Assembly: GCA_965230935.1 (NCBI GenBank)
Contig: OZ246400.1
Location: 173,705 to 237,704 of the forward strand
DNA: 64,000 nt
Origin: an uncultured Gammaproteobacteria bacterium
Lineage (GTDB): Bacteria; Patescibacteriota; Patescibacteriia; Magasanikbacterales; JBBTQS01
Direction: 5' to 3'
In this document: positions 8,373 to 44,020 of the stretch, piece after piece
Position numbering within the stretch: the stretch's first letter is position 1
Layout: every line of letters starts with the position of its first letter
Notes under the pieces: model-generated
Databases searched by the model: none
Told to the model about the DNA's origin: nothing
The model's input: only the letters and a program-made list of their open reading frames with translations
Program-made: the position numbers and the translations under genes

Positions 8373-8447
8373 TCCGGGGTAGCTCAGTGGTAGAGCAGTT
8401 GGCTGTTAACCAATTGGCCGCGGGTTCGAGTCCCGCCCCCGGAGCCA
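8373..8447 (+). tRNA. tRNA-Asn (anticodon GTT)
   Basis: Cloverleaf readable by hand: acceptor tccgggg/ccccgga, D-arm tagctcagtggtagagca, anticodon loop ctGTTaa, T-arm gcgggttcgagtcccgc, encoded CCA. Confidence 0.9.
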
Positions 8448-12655: not shown

Positions 12656-13219
12656 ATGAACAAAACAAAGATTGCACTTTCCGGAATTGCTGGTTCGTTT
12701 TCAGAAGAAGCTGCTCGCATTTATGCAAGCAGAGCTGGTTTTGAACCTGAGTGCGTTTTTGCCGTTGATATGGAAGGGGTTTTGCAATCTATTGATCAAG
12801 ATAAAGTTGAACTTGGTATTTTCCCAGTAGTAAACTCTCGAGGAGGGTTGGTACAAAGTGCATTCCATGCCATGGGAAAGCACACCTTTACTGTTCACGA
12901 TGAATTGTGGATGGAGGTGTACCAATGTTTATTGGTACAAAAGGGGACGACGACGGAGCAGATTACCAAGATCGCAAGTCATCCTCAAGCAATTGCCCAG
13001 TGTGAGCGGCATATTCGCCAGCATCATCCTGATGCTGAGCTTATCTACTGGGATGACACAGCAAAAGCTGCTCAGGATTTGGCACAGGGCGAATTTGACG
13101 CAACCACTGCAGTGATTGCACCATCACGTTCAGCACAGATTTATGATTTAGAAATTTTGGAAAAAGGAATTCAGGATAACCACCCCAATCTTACTACATT
13201 TATTGTGGTAAAAGCATAA
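12656..13219 (+). CDS. prephenate dehydratase (PDT domain only, no ACT domain)
   Basis: PDT-domain pattern (IALSGIAGSFSEEAA...PVVNSRGG...SHPQAIAQC). The ORF stops before any ACT domain. Confidence 0.7.
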   Translation: MNKTKIALSGIAGSFSEEAARIYASRAGFEPECVFAVDMEGVLQSIDQDKVELGIFPVVNSRGGLVQSAFHAMGKHTFTVHDELWMEVYQCLLVQKGTTTEQITKIASHPQAIAQCERHIRQHHPDAELIYWDDTAKAAQDLAQGEFDATTAVIAPSRSAQIYDLEILEKGIQDNHPNLTTFIVVKA

Positions 13220-13304: not shown

Positions 13305-14228
13305 TCAGGCGAACACCGAGGCGCCGCGGAACTGACGCATGACCCCACCTTTGAGGAAGGACAGATCACGCGACAAACGCAGTAGGTGCGCCAACTGCCG
13401 CTCAGTCTTGGTGCTCATCTTCTTGTGGTGTCGCTCCCAGAGCTCGGGCTGGGTGGCCGGATCAGGCACCTGGTAGCGCTGATCCTCGTGAGCCGGCAAC
13501 ACCGGAGCGATGCATTCGCCAAAGTGTTCGACCAAGGCCGCCAAAGGGAACACCTCCTCCACGCCCATGAGGTGGTAGTGAACCTCCTCGTCCTTGACCG
13601 GCGAGTAGCCGATCACCGCGGTATGCGCACGTTTGTACTCGTCCTTGGGCATGCCGGCCAGGTGCGGGGGGAACCCGCCCATGTCCAGCAGCGTCGGGTT
13701 GTGCCAGATGGCCATGGTGTTGGCAATGCGCCCCTCGAGAATCGACTCGGTGAGCTCGTTGATCGCCAGACCGGTAACCATGGCACCCTGCTCGAGCGCT
13801 GCCCACATGGCGTCGAAGTTCTCCTGCGTCAGGTACGGTTGAGCTTCTGTAGACGCGATCATGGAGAACTCACACCCATGCTGCAGCTGGATCCGCACTC
13901 CCTGATTGAGGATCGCGCAGTACAGGTCACCATAGGTGACGATGTGAACGGCCACATCAGCGACTCCGCTTTGCTTCATGGCATCGCACAGCGCCGCGTG
14001 TGTCTCGCCGCAGTCACTCTTGGCGTACCCATGTGCAGCCCAGACCAGCACGTCGACTCGCTTAAGGCGACTCAGCTGGTTGGCAAGGGTAAGCTGGTTG
14101 GCAGCACGGATCATCTCTACGACCTGTGCACACCGCTTCGGGACATCTTCTGCCTTCGTGGCAAAAGTGCGTAGGACAAGTCCTACATTGCGCACGCGCA
14201 TATTGCGCGGCTTGACCGAATTGGTCAT
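13305..14228 (-). CDS. hypothetical protein, high-GC cassette gene D
   Basis: 307-aa ORF with GGAGG SD 9 nt before ATG 14228. Body is strongly GC-rich with GC-rich codons. No domain recognised. Confidence 0.75.
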   Translation of the reverse strand: MTNSVKPRNMRVRNVGLVLRTFATKAEDVPKRCAQVVEMIRAANQLTLANQLSRLKRVDVLVWAAHGYAKSDCGETHAALCDAMKQSGVADVAVHIVTYGDLYCAILNQGVRIQLQHGCEFSMIASTEAQPYLTQENFDAMWAALEQGAMVTGLAINELTESILEGRIANTMAIWHNPTLLDMGGFPPHLAGMPKDEYKRAHTAVIGYSPVKDEEVHYHLMGVEEVFPLAALVEHFGECIAPVLPAHEDQRYQVPDPATQPELWERHHKKMSTKTERQLAHLLRLSRDLSFLKGGVMRQFRGASVFA

Positions 14229-14381
14229 TGGTTTCCTCCATAGTACTTCCCCAACGCATCAGGGAAATACGCAGTTGGCTTCTCACCGTACGACACTAGT
14301 CAGTTATCTGTCTTCTCCCTAACGCATCAGGAAAAATCAAGAACTGAGGGAACCGCGCCCCTACCGCTTGGCAAGACAAAA

Positions 14382-14409
14382 AGTATAGCAAAATTACTCC
14401 TTTTGTCAA
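14382..14409 (-). promoter_or_regulatory. sigma70-like promoter for gene D (minus strand: TTGACA-16-TATACT)
   Basis: Minus-strand reading ctaTTGACAaaaggagtaattttgcTATACTttt. About 145-nt leader to ATG 14228. Confidence 0.6.
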
Positions 14410-14487
14410 TAGTTTTCACAAGAAAGTTCTTTGTATTTCAGAAAATATGGTAGACTGCAGACAGTAATTTCAGCCAAATATTAGGAT

Positions 14488-16146
14488 ATGCCAATTAAAC
14501 ACAGCACGTCAGCGCTTACTAAAGAGCAGCACGAAACGCAAGATGCTCGGTATGCCCAAAATCATCAGTACGACTACATCATTGTTGGGACAGGAAATAC
14601 ATCATTGACTGTTGGGGCCTTGCTTGCCCGATCTGGTGCACGGGTATGTATGCTTGAGGCACACGATATACCTGGAGGTTATGCCCAAACCTTTACGATG
14701 GGTAAGTATAAATTTTGCGCACAAATTCATTACACTTGGGGATGTGCACCAGGAGGAAAGATTTACAAATTTTTGAAAAAACTTGGATTGGAAAAAGACG
14801 TCTCATGGGAGCTATATGATCGCGAGGGATATGATCATATGGTGATGCCTGATGGTACACAGGTTAAAATTCCGTATGGATGGGATCGACTCGTCGAAAA
14901 TGTAGCAACAGCCTATCCGCATGAGCGAGAGGGGATGGAAAAGTTTGTGGGTATTGCTCGAATGATTCGAGGACAGATGGCACATTTTCCATCGCGTGGC
15001 GAGCCGTGGTATCGATACGTTACAAAGGGATGGAGATTGACTGGATTGGCACGTTATCGTAACAAAACTCTTCAAGATGTATTTGATGAGTGTGGGCTTG
15101 GCAAAGAAGCACGCGCAGTGCTTAGTGCCAATGCCGGAGATTTGATGTCACCTCCAAAGGAGCTAAGCTTTTTACTCTACATCGCATTATTTGGTGGATA
15201 TAACACTGGCGCGTATTATCCAACTCATGATTTTAAACACTATATTGATCGAGTTGCTTCTGTTATTACAGATAGTCCAGGATGTCACATTTATTATGAA
15301 ACTGAGGCGGTAAAAATTGATGTACAGGGAAATCAAGCTACTGCAGTACACACACGCAATGGCAAAACATTTACGGCACCGACTATTATTTGTGGTATGG
15401 ATCCACAAGCTGCTGCACACGAACTGATCGGGTGGGATAAGGTTCCACAAGGGTATCAGAAGAAATTATCATATTCATATTGTCCGTCCGGTATGACAAT
15501 GTATGTAGGATTCAAACCTGGATTTGACTTGCGTGAGTATGGTTTTGGGAAGTTTAATATTTGGCACTTAGAGCAATGGGATATGAATGCTTCTTGGAAG
15601 CAACAGCTTTCCGGTGATTTTAGTGCCCCGTGGATGTTTATGTCCACACCTACGCTGCATAGTGATAAAAGCGGGAATGCACCACAAGATTCTCAGATTT
15701 TAGAGATTGCATCACTTACTGATTTTGATTCGTTCAAAAAAGCGCAGGATGCAAGTTATGGTGAGTATTCAAAAAAGAAAATGGCGCTCATGGAACGATT
15801 AATTGATTTGGTACAGGAAAAATATATTCCAAACATGCGAGATCATATCGCGCTTAAGTTTGCTGGCACGCCGGTAACAAATTTTGATTTTGTAAAAGCA
15901 CCATACGGCACAGCATATGGTGCCGCAATGATTCCATCCCAAACAGGGCTAAACCGTTTGCAAGCATCGACCCCGTGGAAAAATTTGTATTGGAGTAATC
16001 AATCAGCTGGATATCCCGGGATGTATGGTACGGTCAGTACCGGTATGTCTTTGTATACGACGCTAACCGGCGATCATTTTTTGGATGAGATGGAACAAAA
16101 GAGTGATGATGAGATGATTGCTGCAATTATGACAGAGATTCGATAA
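14488..16146 (+). CDS. FAD-dependent oxidoreductase, phytoene desaturase/CrtI-like family
   Basis: N-terminal dinucleotide-binding fold (YDYIIVGTGNTSLTVGALLARSGARVCMLEAHDIPGG). Length and C-terminal pattern match the CrtI/amine-oxidase family. Confidence 0.8.
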   Translation: MPIKHSTSALTKEQHETQDARYAQNHQYDYIIVGTGNTSLTVGALLARSGARVCMLEAHDIPGGYAQTFTMGKYKFCAQIHYTWGCAPGGKIYKFLKKLGLEKDVSWELYDREGYDHMVMPDGTQVKIPYGWDRLVENVATAYPHEREGMEKFVGIARMIRGQMAHFPSRGEPWYRYVTKGWRLTGLARYRNKTLQDVFDECGLGKEARAVLSANAGDLMSPPKELSFLLYIALFGGYNTGAYYPTHDFKHYIDRVASVITDSPGCHIYYETEAVKIDVQGNQATAVHTRNGKTFTAPTIICGMDPQAAAHELIGWDKVPQGYQKKLSYSYCPSGMTMYVGFKPGFDLREYGFGKFNIWHLEQWDMNASWKQQLSGDFSAPWMFMSTPTLHSDKSGNAPQDSQILEIASLTDFDSFKKAQDASYGEYSKKKMALMERLIDLVQEKYIPNMRDHIALKFAGTPVTNFDFVKAPYGTAYGAAMIPSQTGLNRLQASTPWKNLYWSNQSAGYPGMYGTVSTGMSLYTTLTGDHFLDEMEQKSDDEMIAAIMTEIR

Positions 16147-17410
16147 TGCCGGTGGCTACTCGTTTGCCATTCCAGAGTGCTCCTTCAGTCCACGGACTAT
16201 TGAGATAATCCCCACAGAGCCAAACATTGCGTTGTCCTTGCTCGTGAGTCAAAAATTCATGTGCATTGGTCAGCAATTCTTGGTTAAATTTTGGCATGGC
16301 ATGTGTCCAGCGCTGTAGATCATGTGGAGTGAGATCATCTTTACTTACCCAAGGGCACACTTTTGGAAATTCTTCTAGTACCGCTTTCCAAATTTCATCA
16401 TCAGATTTGGTGAGCATCTCTTGAGCATACCCATCATGGAGCCACGTGCATAACAGTTGTTTGCCGTTGCTACGTAAGTCATCACCTTTCATCACCTCAT
16501 TAGAGATACCGGAGAATTTTGTATTTTGAACGTATGGAATCCACGTAATTGAGGTTTTGGGCAAACTATCTGCTGCGACCTGAAACGCAACACTTACTGA
16601 GCTTGCATATTCAGTTTGCTCAAGTAGTTGTTGCTGGATTGGTGTTTTCTTTTTAAGGATTTGATTGCTTATCGGAGCAGTGGTGGCGAGTACCACAGTA
16701 TCGTATTGCTCTGCATCACGCTCAGTCTGAACAGTCCACATATCACCTTGTAAGGTGATTGAATGTACTGGCGTATTGGTTCGCACATCAAGATGTTTAG
16801 CAAGTGCTTCTGGTAAAACACTCATTCCTCCAGCGATACGATGGAGGTCCCACGCTGTCTTGTCTTTTTTAACTGATTGCATCACTGCGACAAAAGCTGC
16901 GGCACTTGCTTCAGTTGCCCGATGGAATTGATATGCAGCAGTAAATGGATCAACTATATAATCTGCTATTTCCTGATTCAGATGCGTGATCGCATAGTCG
17001 TACGCATTATCAGTATTGTACTCCATTGCCGTTTCAAGATCTCGAAAATCAGCATCTTCACTCATTTTGCGATAGGTATTTGCTAAAACAAGGTTTGATT
17101 TAAGAGAAAGTGTTTTGTGTACTGGTTTGATAGAACCATTTTTAAAAATTCCATAGGAGCAAAAATCCATTGGCATCCAGTCCAGATTAAGTTCATCAAC
17201 ATACTCCAACATATTGGTGTAATTGGGAATCAGGTGGGTAGCACCAATATCAAAAATAAGCCCATCTTTTTCGCGCGAACGCATGCGTCCGCCAACTGTG
17301 GAATCAGCTTCAAACACTGTGACGTCTTGGCCGGCCTTTTTAAGTTCATATGCGCAAACGAGTCCGGCAATACCTGCGCCTATAATTGCAATGCGAGGAG
17401 TTATTTTCAT
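16127..17410 (-). CDS. FAD-dependent amine oxidase / protoporphyrinogen-oxidase-like protein
   Basis: RIAIIGAGIAGLVCAYELKKAGQDVTVFEADSTVGGR Rossmann motif. Convergent with, and overlapping, the previous gene by 20 nt. Confidence 0.8.
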   Translation of the reverse strand: MKITPRIAIIGAGIAGLVCAYELKKAGQDVTVFEADSTVGGRMRSREKDGLIFDIGATHLIPNYTNMLEYVDELNLDWMPMDFCSYGIFKNGSIKPVHKTLSLKSNLVLANTYRKMSEDADFRDLETAMEYNTDNAYDYAITHLNQEIADYIVDPFTAAYQFHRATEASAAAFVAVMQSVKKDKTAWDLHRIAGGMSVLPEALAKHLDVRTNTPVHSITLQGDMWTVQTERDAEQYDTVVLATTAPISNQILKKKTPIQQQLLEQTEYASSVSVAFQVAADSLPKTSITWIPYVQNTKFSGISNEVMKGDDLRSNGKQLLCTWLHDGYAQEMLTKSDDEIWKAVLEEFPKVCPWVSKDDLTPHDLQRWTHAMPKFNQELLTNAHEFLTHEQGQRNVWLCGDYLNSPWTEGALWNGKRVATGIIESLS

Positions 17411-17450
17411 ACGTAATTGGTTGTGCAGATCATACCACGCTCACCATCTC

Positions 17451-17479
17451 TTGACGAGGTTATGTAAGTTTTATACACT
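17451..17479 (+). promoter_or_regulatory. sigma70-like promoter for gene A (TTGACG-17-TACACT)
   Basis: cTTGACGaggttatgtaagttttaTACACTg, followed by a leader hairpin and SD. Confidence 0.6.
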
Positions 17480-17508
17480 GCAATCTCCCACTCATCAACA
17501 ATGGGAGA

Positions 17509-18576
17509 TTGGAGGTCGCTTTGAGCACACCTGAGCCTGCGGGCAAACCTGCGGTCCGGATTGTCCAGGCCGTGGACCAACCGAACATCAGCAAAGCGAT
17601 CCACGCATTGCTGTTGTTCTTCGAGGAGCGTAACTGGGTCGACAACGACGCCATGATCCTGGAGCTCGGTCGTGCGCTGCACGAGGGTCATCAGTGTTGG
17701 GCACCGGTGTACGATCGGGACGCGGTCGGGACGCGGCTCATCTACGTACTGCCGTTCGACGGAGCGCAAGGACAGCGTCGCAGCGCCACGCGCTGCGTCT
17801 GGGTGTCCACCGCACGAGCGGATCTGATGGTCGAGCACATGATCGAACTTACCACCGGGCCATACGGTCGTGGTCGTAAGGCGCCGTCGGAGGGCATGTT
17901 CATCCAGGACACCGCAGCAACCGATCACCTCAACGAGTGTATCGGTCGCAAGATCGGTCGTCCGTGGGAGGTCGCTGACATTGCGTATACCGCGTCGCAG
18001 ACTTTGGCCGCGTGGTGGGCGGAGCAGCACCCGGTTCCGGCGACGCGCCGACCGGGACGCCGCGAGCGACTCAGTGAAGAGTTGTTGGGACACGTCAGGG
18101 AAGCACTGCGTTCGTCACAGCAGTTCGCCGTGGCCCCACCGCGTGGGTCGAGTGGCATGGGTTTTTACGTCCTGCCGATCGACCAGTGGACGCTCCAGCG
18201 CTGCATCGGGATAACGCTCAACGGCCACGCTGCCGAGGATTTGTCCCGGGATCTCGCCGGTCGGATTCGTTTGCACCTTGGCGACCGTTGGGAGCTGGGT
18301 GGCGACGAGGGTCCGGTGGAGGCCGAGTCCGATGTCATGAGCGTGAGTTCGGACGAGATCGAGTTCGAGCTCGAGTTCGACGACGATGCGGATGACGACG
18401 CGGACGACGAGAACGTCGCAGAGGCCGTGGTAGTTTCGCAGGTTGTCTCCGGTGACGAGCCGACGCAGGAGGCCACGCCGAGTGCCGGCACTGCTCCCAC
18501 TGACGAGCAGATGTCCACCCCAGCTGAGGACGGCAAAGGGCGCTCCGAGGGCAACCCTCCGGTTGGCCCGGCGTAA
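17509..18576 (+). CDS. hypothetical protein with acidic C-terminal tail, high-GC cassette gene A
   Basis: 355-aa ORF. Likely real start is TTG 17521, 5 nt after GGAGG (17511-17515). GC-rich codons. C-terminal EFELEFDDDADDDADDE low-complexity region. No domain recognised. Confidence 0.75.
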   Translation: MEVALSTPEPAGKPAVRIVQAVDQPNISKAIHALLLFFEERNWVDNDAMILELGRALHEGHQCWAPVYDRDAVGTRLIYVLPFDGAQGQRRSATRCVWVSTARADLMVEHMIELTTGPYGRGRKAPSEGMFIQDTAATDHLNECIGRKIGRPWEVADIAYTASQTLAAWWAEQHPVPATRRPGRRERLSEELLGHVREALRSSQQFAVAPPRGSSGMGFYVLPIDQWTLQRCIGITLNGHAAEDLSRDLAGRIRLHLGDRWELGGDEGPVEAESDVMSVSSDEIEFELEFDDDADDDADDENVAEAVVVSQVVSGDEPTQEATPSAGTAPTDEQMSTPAEDGKGRSEGNPPVGPA

Positions 18577-18608
18577 CTTTAGCCATCACACAACACACAC
18601 AACATGAA

Positions 18609-18637
18609 GAACGCGCAAACAAGCGCGCTCTTTGTAT
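18609..18637 (+). terminator. hairpin terminator after gene A
   Basis: gaacgcgc-aaacaa-gcgcgctc stem followed by tttgtattct. Confidence 0.65.
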
Positions 18638-18710
18638 TCTGGACAAAAGTAATTTGTTATAGTATGTATAAGATACCTGCATAAGAGATAGTGCAGGAAG
18701 AGGAGATCAG

Positions 18711-19478
18711 ATGTCACATGACGAATCGGCAGCGCCCCCGCAAGTGCCGATTGAGGAGGCCATTGTTGGGTTTTGCGCCCACATTGGATTGGTCGCCCGG
18801 AGTTCGTTTGGCGAGGAGTTGGTTGCTGCGGTGTGCCGAAAGGCCGTCTGCGCGATCGACATACAACCAGACTGGGATCAACGGGCAGTCTTTCGCGTAC
18901 CAGCAAAGCACGACCGTGTCTCGGGCGTGTTCGCAGTGATCTTGCTCGACGACGCGCTGAGCGAGTCGCTGACCAATGACTTCAATGAGCTTCTGCTGGG
19001 CTATGGCGGCTCAGGAGAAGGAGATGTTGATCACTGGAGTCAGACGACCAAGCTCACCCGCGCGGTTCGTGGGCTCAAGAGCTGGTTCAAGGACAGAGGC
19101 ATCCGTCTGGAGGTTGGGGATATCAACAGCTTTGTCACCGCCTGGGAAACTGGTGAGGTGAGAGAGTGGTCGTTTGATCAAGGTCGTGGAGCACCGGTGA
19201 TTGCGTTCGTCGTGCGTCCGTACGATGCCCCCAGAGACGAACGACGAAACAGTGAAGTTTGCGTCGAGGTGCACTGGGGTGACAGGCTCAACCACGAGTT
19301 GACTGCTGGTCTGAACCAGATGATCGACGATGCGTTGGGCCCCGATCTTCACTGGGACGTTCGGCGAACCACGGATGAGGACGCGTCTACGTCTGCCCAT
19401 TTTGCTGCACAGGAGGTGGCAGCCATCGGGGGGCAACAGCGGGAGCAACCGCGCCGTCGCAGCGCTGTGGGCGAGTAA
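18711..19478 (+). CDS. hypothetical protein, high-GC cassette gene B
   Basis: 255-aa ORF. ATG preceded by GGAAGAGGAG SD. GC-rich codons. No domain recognised. Confidence 0.75.
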   Translation: MSHDESAAPPQVPIEEAIVGFCAHIGLVARSSFGEELVAAVCRKAVCAIDIQPDWDQRAVFRVPAKHDRVSGVFAVILLDDALSESLTNDFNELLLGYGGSGEGDVDHWSQTTKLTRAVRGLKSWFKDRGIRLEVGDINSFVTAWETGEVREWSFDQGRGAPVIAFVVRPYDAPRDERRNSEVCVEVHWGDRLNHELTAGLNQMIDDALGPDLHWDVRRTTDEDASTSAHFAAQEVAAIGGQQREQPRRRSAVGE

Positions 19479-19502
19479 CTCAACACAACACACAACACAG
19501 GG

Positions 19503-19529
19503 CCTCCGCTACAACTTAGTGGAGGTTTT
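19503..19529 (+). terminator. hairpin terminator after gene B
   Basis: cctccgcta-caact-tagtggagg 9-bp stem followed by TTTT. Confidence 0.7.
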
Positions 19530-19537
19530 GTAATATC

Positions 19538-19566
19538 TTGACAGGAAAGCTGTCGCATAGTATAGT
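19538..19566 (+). promoter_or_regulatory. consensus sigma70 promoter for gene C (TTGACA-17-TATAGT)
   Basis: cTTGACAggaaagctgtcgcatagTATAGTc. Confidence 0.7.
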
Positions 19567-19590
19567 CTCTTCTCTCCTCATTGCATTGCT

Positions 19591-20238
19591 TTGATTAACT
19601 ACCGGGGAGGGAAGGGGGCTAACACCTTGAGTGAAGATTGGCGCGGCTTTGTCGCGGCACGTGAGGAAGATCGCGTTGCTGCGCTTGGTGCCGCAATGTC
19701 TCATCTGATGCAGCGAGTGGGGTTCATTGACCCCAAATCGCCTGGGGACAAGAAGTCTCGGAAGGCGCTTGCACAGATGGGGTCGGCATTGGCTGCCATG
19801 ATCAGTGCCGCCCGTTCCGGTGACGTGTACATCACGGTGCTGCAGGGCGAGCAGACAGGTTCCGACGTGCTGATCCAGGTGTTGCCATTCGCCCCGACTA
19901 TGATCGGCGATGGCGACGATGCCGCGTTGGATCTGAGCATGCCGCGTCGCACTCGCGAGCGGCTGGTCATGGTCTACACTCTCTCGCCGAACGGCACTGA
20001 CCGTGGCTTCGAGTTCTCTCTGGATCTCACCACCAGCTTCAACACAGGTGTGCAGCAGGTCATCGACGTGCAGCACACATCACTCCTGCAACGAGGTTTG
20101 AGGCCCAGGGAGCGATCCGAGTCCCCCCCGGCACCAAATGGCTGGTTGACCTGGGAGGACTGGCTCGAGGAGTCGGCACGACGCGCCGAGCAGTCGGGGA
20201 CTGGAGGCGAGGAGGTCGAGGAGTCCTCAGGCTCCTGA
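19591..20238 (+). CDS. hypothetical protein, high-GC cassette gene C
   Basis: ORF from TTG 19591. More likely start is TTG 19627, 8 nt after the GGGGAGGGAAGGGGG SD-like run. GC-rich codons. No domain recognised. Confidence 0.7.
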   Translation: MINYRGGKGANTLSEDWRGFVAAREEDRVAALGAAMSHLMQRVGFIDPKSPGDKKSRKALAQMGSALAAMISAARSGDVYITVLQGEQTGSDVLIQVLPFAPTMIGDGDDAALDLSMPRRTRERLVMVYTLSPNGTDRGFEFSLDLTTSFNTGVQQVIDVQHTSLLQRGLRPRERSESPPAPNGWLTWEDWLEESARRAEQSGTGGEEVEESSGS

Positions 20239-29336: not shown

Positions 29337-29639
29337 ATGGATACTCCTGAGACACCTTCAGCAAAATCACAAGATGAGTTTGAGTTTACTGCAGATGTGA
29401 AACCACGCAAAACCGGGAAGATACGGAAGATTGTTGTTGATCAAGACGGCTGCATTGGCGCGGGAAGTTGTGTTGCCGTAACTCCGGGCGTATTTCAATT
29501 GGATGATGAAGATAAAGCATATATCGTTGATCCAGAATCAGCAGATGACGACATGTTGCTGATGTCTGCACAAAGTTGTCCAGTATTGGCGATCCATTTA
29601 TACGATGAAGAGGGGAATAAAATTTTCCCAGAAGCCTAA
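29337..29639 (+). CDS. ferredoxin (single-cluster, CxxGxC...CP type)
   Basis: DQDGCIGAGSCVAVTP ... SCPVLAI pattern of mono-cluster ferredoxins. Confidence 0.7.
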   Translation: MDTPETPSAKSQDEFEFTADVKPRKTGKIRKIVVDQDGCIGAGSCVAVTPGVFQLDDEDKAYIVDPESADDDMLLMSAQSCPVLAIHLYDEEGNKIFPEA

Positions 29640-29641
29640 AT

Positions 29642-30313
29642 ATGCTTGGCACGCTTTTTGTTGTTGGCACACCGATTGGAAATTTATCAGATTGTAGTGC
29701 TCGCACGCTTGAAACACTCAAGCGTGTTTCATATATTTTGGCCGAAGATACGCGAGTAGCGAAAAAACTACTCACCCATTTTGCTATCTCCACACCAGCG
29801 AAGCGTCTTGATATGCACAGTAGTGCAAAAACATTTTCGCTAACACTTGCTGATTTGCAATCTGGTAAAGATGTTGCATTGATTAGTGACGCCGGCACGC
29901 CGACAATTGCTGATCCTGGGGCGCAATGTATTGCCTATGTGCTGCAACATGAACCCACACTTGTGGTGAGTCCAATTCCCGGACCAAGCGCACTCACTGC
30001 AGCACTCTCTGTTGCTGGTTTTCCAAGTAGTTCATTTACCTTCTATGGGTTTGCTCCGGCGAAAAAAGGTAGGCACAATTTTTTTAAACGAATCGCTAAT
30101 CGCGCTGAAGTTGTGGTTTTGTTTGAGTCGGTGCATCGCATTACCAAAACACTCCAAGAGCTTAAAGAGCACATCGGTGATCGCCCGGTAATAGTTGCGC
30201 GTGAATTGACGAAACAATTTGAAACAGTATATCGTGGAAGTATTGCAACGATTCTCGAAAATGGAATTGTTGAAAAAGGCGAGTTTGTCATTGTGGTTTC
30301 CCCGAAAAAATGA
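29642..30313 (+). CDS. rsmI: 16S rRNA (cytidine1402-2'-O)-methyltransferase
   Basis: Tetrapyrrole-methylase fold with the characteristic N-terminus (LFVVGTPIGNLSDCSARTLETLKRVSYILAEDTR). Confidence 0.85.
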   Translation: MLGTLFVVGTPIGNLSDCSARTLETLKRVSYILAEDTRVAKKLLTHFAISTPAKRLDMHSSAKTFSLTLADLQSGKDVALISDAGTPTIADPGAQCIAYVLQHEPTLVVSPIPGPSALTAALSVAGFPSSSFTFYGFAPAKKGRHNFFKRIANRAEVVVLFESVHRITKTLQELKEHIGDRPVIVARELTKQFETVYRGSIATILENGIVEKGEFVIVVSPKK

Positions 30314-40696: not shown

Positions 40697-41125
40697 ATGG
40701 AAAAATCTCGACTGCAATTTACTATTGTCACTCCTGAGTCAACAATCTTTGACGGATCTGTTGGTCAAGTTTCAATTATGACTGCAGCCGGAGAAATTAC
40801 CGTGTTGCCACATCACATTCCATTGCTTGGAATTTTGACTCCGGGTGAGCTTAAGATTCAAGATGATAGTGGTGAGGAATTACACATCGCAGTAGCAGGT
40901 GGTTTTGTAGAAGTGGCAGCTGATAATCATGTGACGGTTTTGGCTGATGCGGCAGAGCGCGCTGATGAGATTGACTTGGAGCGTGCGCAACAAGCACAAG
41001 AGCGTGCTCGTATTGCGCTTGAGAAAAAACAATTTGCTAATGATATCGAATTTGCCGCGCTGCAAGCCGCACTTGAGAGATCGCTTAGTCGGATTAAAGT
41101 TGCACGGAAACGCCGAAGGAAATAG
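40697..41125 (+). CDS. atpC: F0F1 ATP synthase subunit epsilon
   Basis: N-terminal beta-sandwich and C-terminal helical hairpin. Position after atpD. Confidence 0.9.
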   Translation: MEKSRLQFTIVTPESTIFDGSVGQVSIMTAAGEITVLPHHIPLLGILTPGELKIQDDSGEELHIAVAGGFVEVAADNHVTVLADAAERADEIDLERAQQAQERARIALEKKQFANDIEFAALQAALERSLSRIKVARKRRRK

Positions 41126-41164
41126 GACAACGTAGTGATGCAAAAATTACTTTAGAATAAGAGA

Positions 41165-41205
41165 AAAAAAGACGAATCTGTGTTATAGATTCGTCTTTAA
41201 TTTTA
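41165..41205 (+). terminator. rho-independent terminator of atp operon
   Basis: aaagacgaatc-tgtgttata-gattcgtcttt perfect 11-bp stem followed by a T-run. Confidence 0.8.
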
Positions 41206-41213
41206 GCTAAATA

Positions 41214-41242
41214 TTGACAAATATTCAATTTTAATGTATTGT
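41214..41242 (+). promoter_or_regulatory. sigma70-like promoter for Cys-rich lipoprotein gene (TTGACA-17-TATTGT)
   Basis: aTTGACAaatattcaattttaatgTATTGTg. Followed by a GC-rich structured leader (ggccacagtggcc palindrome; gccatg...catggc stem). Confidence 0.55.
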
Positions 41243-41337
41243 GCTACCTTATAGGAGGGCCACAGTGGCCAGCCATGCGGCGATGATTCCATGGCATGAA
41301 GCTGTGGGTTCTTTGACAATTAGAGGGGGTTCGAAAG

Positions 41338-43989
41338 ATGAATCGAATAGCTATTACCCTTGCCTTTGCCGCCCTGATCGCAGGGTGTGCAGACGCATCG
41401 GTAGATCCAGGAACGGTCGAGTGTTTCGGCGAGGCCTGTGCCAAGCCGGACGCCGATACGACCGGTGGTGGGGAGGTAGTCCCTCCGGATACCACACCGG
41501 ATGTCGGCGACACCGGTGATGACAGTGATGATCCGGATGTGCTCGAGACCGACGACGGTGCTGAGGTGGACGACATCAATGACGCCGATACGGCCGTCGA
41601 GGATGTGGACATCGACGTTCCGGACGAGGGTGATGATGGCGACACGCCGGATGTGCCCGAGACCAACGACGGTGCTGAGGTGGACGACACCGAGGACACC
41701 GACGAGACGACGGACACGGACGAGACCGATACGCCTGTTGATCCCTGCGATGGGGTCGACTGCACGGACGACAACCCGTGCACCATCGACGAGACGTGCG
41801 TGGATGGCGAGTGTGTCAGCTCGCCGGTCGTCTGCAACGATGACAATCCGTGTACGGACGATGCGTGCGTCGTGATTGAAGGTGGGTGCGTGTATACCCC
41901 GAACGCAGTGCTGTGTGAGGATGGCGACCCGTGTACGCTGGAGGACGCCTGTGTGGACGGTTCCTGTGCGCCTGGCGCACCGAAGATCTGCCAGGATGCC
42001 AACTTCTGCACCGTGGATGCGTGCGACCCGGTTTCCGGGGAGTGTGCCTTCGTGGTCGTGCCCGAGCCCTGCGATGATGGGAACGAGTGTACGCAGGAGG
42101 AGGTGTGTCAGCAGGACGCCACGTGTGGCAACGGGGCGGAAGTGGAGTGCGCAGACGAAGATCCGTGCACGAACGACAGCTGCAATCCGGACTCGGGTTG
42201 TGTGTTTGCTCAGAAGGAGTGCGACGACGAAGATCCGTGCACCGTTGACTTGTGCGAGACCGAGTCTGGCGAGTGTACCTTCGTGATCGTGCCGGAGTGC
42301 AAATGCGCTCCTGAGCAGTGTACGGACGACAACCCGTGCACGTCGGACGTGTGCAACCCGCTCGACGGGTCCTGCTCCTTCCCGTTCAACACGGAGCCGT
42401 GTGACGATGGCGACCCGTGTACGTTGGAGGACGCCTGTGCGGACGGTTCCTGTGCGCCTGGCGCGCCCAAGTCGTGTATCAGTGAGAACATCTGCCTGAG
42501 CGCGAGCTGCAATCCGGAGACGGGGAGCTGTGAGCTGAGTGAGAACACCGCGCCGTGTGACGATGGCGATGCGTGCACCCAGGAAGATGTGTGTAACGAA
42601 GGTTCGTGCGCTGGCGTGCTGATGGTGTGTACGGACGACAACCCGTGCACCGAAGGCGACACGTGCAATGGCGGCACTTGCGCCGCCGGGGAAGCCAAGG
42701 TCTGCGAAGACGGTAACCCCTGCACGGTTGGTGCGTGCGACCCGGATTCCGGGGAGTGCGCGTTTTCCCCGGACAACGGGGGAAGCTGCACGGACGACAA
42801 CCCGTGCACCAACGACGTCTGCCAGGACGGGGAGTGTGTGAGCGAGGCCAACAGCGCCTGCTGCACTGAAGACGCGCAGTGCGCTGACGAGCTGGCCTGT
42901 ACGCAGGACCAGTGCGTGGAGCAGTTGTGTAAGAACTTCGTCATTCCGGGCACCGGGCATTGCCTTATCGAGGAGGTGTGTATTCCGGAAGGGGTGGTCA
43001 ATTCGGCCAACGACTGTGAGGCTTGCACCTCGATGGTCAACCCCAACGGGTGGAGCCCGCTTGTGGATGGGAGCGATTGCGAAGATGGACAGGCGTGCAC
43101 CGAAGGCGACACGTGCAATGGCGGCACTTGCGCCGCCGGGGAAGCCAAGGTCTGCGAAGACGGTAACCCCTGCACGGTTGGTGCGTGCGACCCGGATTCC
43201 GGGGAGTGCGCGTTTTCCCCGGACAACGGGGGAAGCTGCACGGACGACAACCCGTGCACCAACGACGTCTGCCAGGACGGGGAGTGTGTGAGTACCACAG
43301 TCGCGTGCGACGACGGTCTCCCATGCACTCTGGATTCGTGTGACGAGGCGGGCGAGTGTCAGTACGAGCCCAAGACGTGTGACGACTCCAATCCGTGCAC
43401 CATCGATTCGTGCGAGCAGAGCACCGGCGATTGCGTAGGTGAGCTTGCTACGGTGAAGTTCCAGGACATCACCGCGGCCAAGTGCCTCACGCTTCCGCCG
43501 TTCATGCCATGGTTCGCGTTTGATGACTTCGATGACTCGGAGTCGCCCAATTCGAACATCTGGCACTGCGGTCACGACTGCCTGAACATCGACGCGGCCT
43601 GCCAGTCGCAAGTCGGTACGATCCGTCCCGGGTTTACGCACAACGGGGACCAGCACACCTTTACCATCGACCCGCAAGCAGCGTTTCCGGAACTTGACGG
43701 CATGACCATCTCGGCCGCCTTCACGTTCCGCAGGCAAGGGGTAACGCCCAACGACCTGACGCCGCCTGAGGTTGTGGTGAAGCAGACCATCGACGGAATC
43801 GAAACGGTGCTTGCCTCGCAGTTCCTGGGCAAATCACCGAACAACAATTTCGATTTCCTGGTCGAGTTCCTGGTTGGTGATGGTTTGGTCACGGTGTACT
43901 ACACGCCCAACGACTTCATCCCCGACTCGGAACGCACGCTGCACATCATGCTCGACTCGAACATCGAGCTGCAGCCTGTGTGTCCCTGA
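41338..43989 (+). CDS. large Cys-rich tandem-repeat lipoprotein (CxDDNPCTxDxC repeats, slime-mold/Dicty-CTDC-like)
   Basis: Lipoprotein signal (MNRIAITLAFAALIAGC), acidic D/E/T-rich linker, then roughly 20-25 repeats of about 22-25 aa with 4 Cys each (e.g. CTDDNPCTIDETCVDGECV). C-terminal roughly 170-aa Cys-poor domain. GC-rich codons. High-GC cassette gene E. Confidence 0.85.
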   Translation: MNRIAITLAFAALIAGCADASVDPGTVECFGEACAKPDADTTGGGEVVPPDTTPDVGDTGDDSDDPDVLETDDGAEVDDINDADTAVEDVDIDVPDEGDDGDTPDVPETNDGAEVDDTEDTDETTDTDETDTPVDPCDGVDCTDDNPCTIDETCVDGECVSSPVVCNDDNPCTDDACVVIEGGCVYTPNAVLCEDGDPCTLEDACVDGSCAPGAPKICQDANFCTVDACDPVSGECAFVVVPEPCDDGNECTQEEVCQQDATCGNGAEVECADEDPCTNDSCNPDSGCVFAQKECDDEDPCTVDLCETESGECTFVIVPECKCAPEQCTDDNPCTSDVCNPLDGSCSFPFNTEPCDDGDPCTLEDACADGSCAPGAPKSCISENICLSASCNPETGSCELSENTAPCDDGDACTQEDVCNEGSCAGVLMVCTDDNPCTEGDTCNGGTCAAGEAKVCEDGNPCTVGACDPDSGECAFSPDNGGSCTDDNPCTNDVCQDGECVSEANSACCTEDAQCADELACTQDQCVEQLCKNFVIPGTGHCLIEEVCIPEGVVNSANDCEACTSMVNPNGWSPLVDGSDCEDGQACTEGDTCNGGTCAAGEAKVCEDGNPCTVGACDPDSGECAFSPDNGGSCTDDNPCTNDVCQDGECVSTTVACDDGLPCTLDSCDEAGECQYEPKTCDDSNPCTIDSCEQSTGDCVGELATVKFQDITAAKCLTLPPFMPWFAFDDFDDSESPNSNIWHCGHDCLNIDAACQSQVGTIRPGFTHNGDQHTFTIDPQAAFPELDGMTISAAFTFRRQGVTPNDLTPPEVVVKQTIDGIETVLASQFLGKSPNNNFDFLVEFLVGDGLVTVYYTPNDFIPDSERTLHIMLDSNIELQPVCP
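42644..42842 (+). repeat. 199-bp perfect direct repeat, copy 1 (inside Cys-rich lipoprotein gene)
   Basis: Identical base-for-base to 43094-43292. Encodes CTEGDTCNGGTCAAGEAKVCEDGNPCTVGACDPDSGECAFSPDNGGSCTDDNPCTNDVCQDGECVS. Confidence 0.95.
43094..43292 (+). repeat. 199-bp perfect direct repeat, copy 2
   Basis: Identical to 42644-42842. The 450-nt offset is exactly 150 codons, so recombination between copies would be in-frame. Confidence 0.95.
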
Positions 43990-44020
43990 CCCTCAAGACA
44001 ACAACAAACCTACAACAGTA

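Follow-up and report, generated by a model that had tools for sequence, protein, structure and literature searches.

The window, by which is meant the whole 64-kb stretch of DNA that was analysed, carries on its minus strand a G+C-rich gene, gene D, and next to it a divergently oriented gene for a CrtI-like oxidoreductase. Between the two lie the promoter of gene D and its leader, and the leader contains a repeated sequence of about 20 nt. The features of the locus are:

13305 to 14228, minus strand: gene D, 307 aa, GC 0.61, GC3 0.76
14229 to 14487: intergenic region between gene D (13305 to 14228, minus strand) and the divergent CrtI-like oxidoreductase gene (14488 to 16146)
14235 to 14239, minus strand: Shine-Dalgarno (SD) sequence GGAGG, 6 nt upstream of ATG 14228
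14382 to 14409, minus strand: sigma-70-like promoter, with TTGACA at 14409-14404, a 16-nt spacer and a TG-extended TATACT at 14387-14382

The promoter had been proposed in a preliminary description of this DNA, as TTGACA-16-TATACT on the minus strand at 14409 to 14382, and a consensus scan confirms it: 11 of the 12 consensus positions match, the TG extension is present, and it is the sole sigma-70-like site between positions 13000 and 15000. Homologous loci show TTGACA...TATAAT at a similar distance upstream. Read from the position of the promoter, transcription would start near 14375, which gives a leader of about 147 nt to ATG 14228; the length of about 145 nt proposed earlier is thus borne out, given this start. 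Two further elements are found in the vicinity. A 15-nt inverted repeat (14331-14345 and 14425-14439, 80% complementary) straddles the promoter, one arm being within the leader and the other upstream of the -35 hexamer. The second is a GTTC(T/C)TT box, which follows the -10 hexamer at a distance of a few nucleotides in many loci of Patescibacteria (here designated by L numbers; they include L017, L019, L033, L059, L061, L067, L080, L081 and L095) and has its window counterpart at 14345-14339. At L061 the box stands directly 5' of the SD, in a leader without a riboswitch-like motif. The box may be a general start-site or 5'-UTR element of Patescibacteria.

What does gene D encode? The protein is a GT-A-fold (Rossmann-like), glycosyltransferase-like protein. 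It has no Pfam or NCBIfam match, and a profile search of PDB sequences gave no match. Protein searches found 53 homologues, the nearest 50% identical; those that carry names are hypothetical proteins of Patescibacteria, and to judge from these sequences the family appears to be restricted to this group. The public gene call (P0001) starts at Met10 (position 14201, 298 aa), and the protein from another assembly (P0054) has 307 aa. ATG 14228 is the likely start, because it is the sole candidate with an SD (GGAGG).

Two homologous loci were checked for gene context. In both (L021 and L031) the gene D homologue is found among genes for GT4 and GT2 glycosyltransferases, UDP-glucose dehydrogenase, an NAD-dependent epimerase and an LPG_synthase_TM protein. 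Gene D of the window is isolated and lacks this glycan-cluster context. It is also compositionally foreign, with a GC3 of 0.76 versus 0.35-0.38 in its neighbours. The GC3 excess is an oddity of the family at large: it recurs in the homologues of other AT-rich loci of Patescibacteria, L003, L007, L010, L023, L073 and L080 (e.g. 0.89 versus a locus GC of 0.47 in L007, and 0.81 versus 0.40 in L073), and is absent from the loci that are richest in AT (L009, L088). The window has two more G+C-rich islands, at 17400-20000 and 41000-44000 (0.51-0.63 versus about 0.43). Open reading frames 17407-18093 (minus strand) and 17509-18576 (plus strand) overlap on opposite strands, with GC3 values of 0.63 and 0.75, and have no Pfam or NCBIfam match.

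The direct repeat in the leader consists of one copy at 14248-14267 and another at 14316-14335, identical at 18 of 20 positions and spaced 68 nt from start to start; these make up the one direct-repeat family reported by the repeat tool. Among 300 dinucleotide shuffles of 14229-14409, the highest match of any 20-mer repeat was 15/20, and none of the shuffles reached 18/20. The tandem repeat of about 20 nt that was noted in the leader is therefore real. Its geometry, however, differs from that first given. The earlier coordinates were off by 2-6 nt, as AACGCATCAGGGAAA is located at 14253-14267 and AACGCATCAGGAAAA at 14321-14335; the spacing of about 60 nt is measured as 68 nt; and the end of the gene-proximal copy is 6 nt upstream of the SD rather than at the earlier distance of about 20 nt.

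Are there other copies? A genome search for the 20-mer had been suggested, and within the 64-kb window, at three or fewer mismatches, these two copies alone are found (0 expected); 11-mer and 20-mer searches of the same DNA yielded no extra copies above chance. Other copies of the window locus (L001, L002) are 100% identical over 5 kb and offer no strain variants. No comparable 20-nt repeat is present in 12 homologous leaders, where repeats are 10-16 nt long and placed elsewhere. The 18-mer TCCYTGATGCGTTRGGGA has seven single exact matches in IMG/VR viral contigs (L109-L115), none of which carries two copies. By a rough estimate, seven is about the number expected by chance.

Of importance is that the repeat unit is self-complementary solely when G-U pairs are allowed, i.e. 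it is an RNA palindrome on the gene D strand. Each copy has the form UUUCCCUGA-UGCG-UUGGGGAA, and the distal unit can be read as UUUUCCUGAUG followed by CGUUAGGGAGA. As each copy is an RNA palindrome, the leader RNA can form either one 22-bp helix or two 9-bp hairpins. The folds described here are predictions of a thermodynamic model. The sense leader has a minimum-free-energy fold of -53.5 kcal/mol (z -3.13, 1 of 200 shuffles), whereas the antisense strand gives -34.1 kcal/mol (z -0.39), and the folding signal therefore belongs to the sense transcript. The predicted parts of the leader RNA are listed in transcript order:

14359 to 14376, minus strand: 5'-terminal hairpin UCUUGCC AAGC GGUAGGG of the minimum-free-energy fold
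14346 to 14354, minus strand: anti-SD strand GGUUCCCUC, pairing with GGAGGAAACC (SD and flank) at a probability of 0.98
14312 to 14336, minus strand: distal repeat copy UUUUUCCUGAUGCGUUAGGGAGAAG, which contributes the 5' strand to the 22-bp helix or folds on itself as a 9-bp hairpin (UGCG loop)
14269 to 14311, minus strand: 43-nt spacer between the copies, which caps the long helix and has two small predicted hairpins
14246 to 14267, minus strand: proximal repeat copy UUUCCCUGAUGCGUUGGGGAAG, which contributes the 3' strand to the 22-bp helix or folds on itself as the second hairpin
14240 to 14245, minus strand: unpaired junction UACUAU, which separates the long helix from the SD

In the minimum fold the distal copy pairs with the proximal copy over 22 consecutive base pairs. 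Eight of these are G-U, and the helix can exist only in gene-D-sense RNA for that reason. The state with two hairpins, 9 bp each with UGCG loops, is less stable than the minimum by 4.5 kcal/mol. GGUUCCCUC (14354-14346) is predicted in both states to pair with GGAGGAAACC and bury the SD, the bases of which are paired at p>=0.98 in the model. Forcing the SD open costs 7.9 kcal/mol, versus 3.2+-1.9 kcal/mol in shuffles of the upstream part, 1 of 100 of which reach the observed cost; in ten leaders of the gene D family the cost is 3.1-7.1 kcal/mol. The four substitutions that distinguish the two copies all preserve pairing (U-G to C-G, U-A to U-G, U-G to U-A and U-A to U-G). All four are transitions, and such differences between the copies are weak evidence for pairing at the RNA level. 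Structure prediction had been proposed as a check, and it shows a leader that folds unusually well in the sense orientation with its SD predicted to be paired. An attenuator of the terminator type, also suggested at the outset, finds no support, as there is no hairpin followed by a U-run on the minus strand in 14229-14376.

Some additional pairings and reading frames were noted near the start codon. A map with P1 formed by UUUUUCC and GGAGGAA, together with a P2 limited to the inner 12 bp, is less favourable than the minimum by 14 kcal/mol and was rejected as the main state (P1 and P2 are the helices of the family motif described below). A 5-bp hairpin, UGACC/GGUCA (14213-14227, minus strand), takes in the UG of the start codon together with the first codons. 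There is also a 23-codon upstream open reading frame that begins with GUG (14224-14295, minus strand); its UGA overlaps the AUG of gene D (AUGA), and it is without an SD of its own.

Is the leader of the window unique, or does it have relatives among the leaders of homologous genes? Upstream regions were read in 34 genome and 72 metagenome loci that encode gene D homologues, and about half of the homologues share a conserved leader. The order of its parts is a promoter, a helix P1 of 4-9 bp, a 5' junction RAU, a hairpin P2 and a 3' junction YUACCRA. The 3' strand of P1 runs into the SD, GGAG, and P2 is variable except for the G-C and C-G pairs with which it begins. RNAalifold, applied to a MAFFT alignment of 22 leaders, recovered both P1 and P2 unprompted, with compensatory changes in 10 of 11 pairs. 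In this alignment 87.9% of cells are paired, as compared with 70.0+-1.8% with shuffled partners (0 of 500) and at most 59% with slid partners, and the covariation score is 0.588 versus 0.253 (0 of 500). An alignment of 35 sequences gives 88.7% paired versus 70.1% when shuffled (0 of 500), a figure biased toward the model as this alignment is model-fitted. P1 variants illustrate the compensation: CCAG/CUGG, CCAA/UUGG, CCAU/AUGG, CCAC/GUGG, UCAG/CUGA, CAGA/UCUG, GUUUU/AAAAC and CUAAA/UUUAG. Single-sequence folds of many leaders give the same helices, and Type III homologous leaders start with a hairpin, as does the leader of the window.

The covariance model R1 has 35 matches, of 21-64 bits, in 90 loci, and 34 of these immediately precede a homologue or paralogue of gene D. 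The remaining match (L015, 5095-5153) is a near-identical second copy of the motif before the next gene; that gene starts MKVTVV, and the contig ends there. Other arrangements are seen as well: L102 (826-4399) has gene D paralogues in a tandem array of three, the third of which is preceded by the motif, and in L037 (2065-2129) the motif stands before a homologue of 415 aa that is extended at its N terminus. Conservation is high in the unpaired strands. The U, A, C, C and final A of the junction are found in 32-35 of the 35 sequences, the C and final A of YUACCRA are invariant (35 of 35), and an invariant C-G pair flanks the near-invariant unpaired strands RAU and YUACCRA. The lineages that carry the motif, as labelled in the records, are Paceibacteria, Moranbacteria, Parcubacteria and Saccharibacteria. 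Some other homologues, among them those of L003, L038 and L013, have variant junctions that the model misses, and the leader family is therefore heterogeneous.

The motif has no counterpart in the sources consulted. Rfam 15 at the gathering threshold finds nothing but tRNAs in 16 homologous loci, and in E-value mode it gives no credible match for two representative leaders. A full-text literature search revealed no description of such a motif, nor of any riboswitch motif from Patescibacteria. The leader motif of the gene D family thus is apparently both conserved in Patescibacteria and undescribed.

The leader of the window was compared with this family. It is positioned, at 14376-14229, as are 34 of the 35 matches, i.e. 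directly 5' of gene D, on the sense strand and after a sigma-70-like promoter. The order of its parts agrees also: the closing helix lies over the SD and is followed by a junction with GAU at its end, then by an inner helix and finally by the junction UACUAU. The predicted closing helix, GGUU.CCCU with GGAG.GAAACC, has a probability of 0.98; its 5' strand is 10 nt from the inner helix, not 3, and the models leave it unaligned. GAU occurs three times in the leader, at 14338-14336 before the long helix and as part of GAUGC inside each copy, and no single placement of GAU fits both the junction and the closing pairs of P2. The window junction (G)UACUAU, as compared with YUACCRA, has U for the invariant C and U for the invariant A.

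Searches with the family models do not detect the window leader. With filters off, R1 and R2 give 6.4 bits or less, at E values of 0.18-0.33 that refer to only 241 nt, whereas family members score 21-64 bits; these sub-significant matches are local to each single copy, which resembles a miniature P1-plus-GAU hairpin with an SD-like 3' strand. With three family profiles, nhmmer shows no match at the window leader even at E<=100, and no relative of the leader was found in the collections searched. Rfam was no more informative. The only hit in the whole window at the gathering threshold is a tRNA-Asn at 8373; in E-value mode the only one in the leader is RT-17, on the opposite strand, with 16.6 bits versus a threshold of 40.4 (E 1.2); and the sense strand of the leader has no match even at E<=10. 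Membership in a known family, for which an Rfam/Infernal scan had been proposed, is thus not indicated by Rfam 15. Elsewhere in the window R1 has a sole match, at 29619-29684 (plus strand, 18.3 bits, a rough E of 0.03). This is probably a false positive, because it spans the stop codon of a ferredoxin-like open reading frame (29337-29639) and the ATG and conserved GTPIGN codons of the next one (29642-30313).

How can the leader of the window then be viewed? From the modelled folds and the family comparison, it is best read as a divergent, expanded leader for translational control that would work like the family motif. We infer that it descended from the family motif or works like it, and that the repeat would matter for regulation. 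The anti-SD strand GGUUCCCUC would be the counterpart of the 5' strand of P1, and the junction UACUAU would be the positional counterpart of the YUACCRA strand. The suggestion of an alternative-pairing, riboswitch-like leader, made in the preliminary description, gains in plausibility from the z value of -3.13, the predicted pairing of the SD at p>=0.98 and the covariation of the family motif, and its support comes by way of inference.

It is on balance probable that both copies are parts of a structured 5' leader RNA through which the translation of gene D is controlled, as the predicted folds suggest. In the family, formation of P1 would hide the SD and thereby bring about translational control. 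The conserved internal loop is a likely site for a small molecule, and the motif would then be a riboswitch, probably an OFF switch because P1 often has only 4 bp. Alternatively, the internal loop may bind a protein, possibly the gene product itself. In the window a strong helix of 8 bp would hold the SD, and the duplicated palindromic unit would supply a very stable inner helix, or else twin hairpins that exchange partners; the inner helix may have been expanded by duplication of a hairpin. The leader has three pyrimidine tracts and three SD-like purine tracts, and thus alternative pairings that free the SD are conceivable. A bolder proposal, put forward tentatively as a possibility, is that the motif constitutes a new class of metabolite-sensing riboswitch restricted to Patescibacteria and that the window has a derived form, where the inner hairpin was duplicated into a module, of twin hairpins or a long helix, that would change conformation and so tune access to the SD. 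Such a riboswitch would probably report on a nucleotide-sugar or envelope-precursor pool, since homologues of gene D are situated in glycan-synthesis clusters.

Could the repeat instead be neutral, a by-product of slippage during replication or of a local duplication in tandem, in a leader whose gene was acquired horizontally? Such a leader may still occlude the SD, with the second copy having no role. We regard this as rather unlikely, although several observations fit it: there are only two copies in the 64-kb window and both are in one leader, no homologous leader has a comparable 20-nt repeat, gene D looks foreign by its GC3 (0.76 versus 0.35-0.38) and stands outside the glycan-cluster context of its homologues, and the family models do not detect the leader. 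Against a neutral origin is the finding that base pairing survives each of the four substitutions between the copies. The leader also folds as one coherent, strand-specific structure (z -3.13 versus -0.39), which is weak evidence on this point because a duplicated hairpin is expected to fold anyway.

Two other explanations assign a function to the copies. They may be DNA operators, a pair of sites downstream of the promoter that a dimeric transcription factor binds and that act as a roadblock or through a DNA loop and possibly also affect the divergent CrtI-like gene. The presence of two near-identical 20-bp sites, spaced by 68 bp, in the intergenic region that the divergent genes share is compatible with this, as is the weak dyad TTCCC-N9/10-GGGAA in each site. 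The dyad, however, is good only with G-U pairs; as DNA it mismatches at 4 of 11 positions (7 of 11 are Watson-Crick), and the repeat tool, at the settings employed, finds no inverted repeat inside a copy. The repeated protein-binding site envisaged in the preliminary description is on these grounds disfavoured for DNA. In addition, folding shows a strand specificity that would not be expected of a DNA site; both sites are at about +40 to +130, inside the transcribed leader; 68 bp amount to 6.5 helical turns, so that the sites are on opposite faces of the helix; and no regulator gene is adjacent, the neighbours being enzymes. The operator explanation is thus improbable. The other possibility is a ligand sensor of the guanidine-II (mini-ykkC) type, made up of the twin hairpins. 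The guanidine-II riboswitch has two tandem, similar hairpins with ACGR loops that kiss when the ligand is bound. The near-identical hairpins of the window leader, their identical UGCG loops with a self-complementary central GC, and the abutment of the second hairpin on the SD are reminiscent of this arrangement. But there is no Rfam match of the sense strand at E<=10, the loops are UGCG and not ACGR, the duplex between copies is predicted to be more stable than the hairpins, and the SD is sequestered by a third element rather than by the second hairpin. A sensor of this type is very improbable here. The structured leader RNA that controls translation remains the preferred reading of the repeat.

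Patescibacteria (Candidate Phyla Radiation) have tiny genomes with few recognizable regulators, and to our knowledge almost nothing has been reported on how they control gene expression. A strongly covarying leader RNA before a GT-A-fold enzyme of surface-glycan clusters thus represents a concrete regulatory element that can be tested. Should a ligand be found, it would help to establish what the enzyme does and what these epibionts sense. For the window itself, an odd repeat is best explained as an RNA structure rather than a DNA site, and the likely start codon of gene D is corrected. The conserved leader motif of the family would seem the more valuable outcome, the window repeat being a one-off with a proposed function.

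How does the leader compare with known RNA systems? As in guanidine-II riboswitches, two near-identical hairpins with identical loops can form, the second adjoining the SD; it differs in its loop sequence, and its hairpins compete with a more stable duplex between the copies. RNA thermometers (fourU/ROSE) and other SD-occluding leaders share a pyrimidine-rich strand that pairs with the SD, at a finite cost of opening (3-8 kcal/mol). Near-invariant unpaired junction nucleotides across distant lineages, however, are not characteristic of thermometers; Rfam gives no match here, and the closing helix of the window is G-C rich. The anatomy of the family motif is that of a translational riboswitch or of a regulator that binds protein, in which a hairpin has a conserved internal loop and its closing helix covers the SD. 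The window leader itself does not match the motif model. The family motif has a covarying P1 over the SD, near-invariant unpaired strands and a variable distal hairpin, and the leader of the window displays the same order of parts and a predicted sequestered SD. The motif is tied almost entirely to one gene family (34 of 35 matches), and autoregulation fits this as well as metabolite sensing does.
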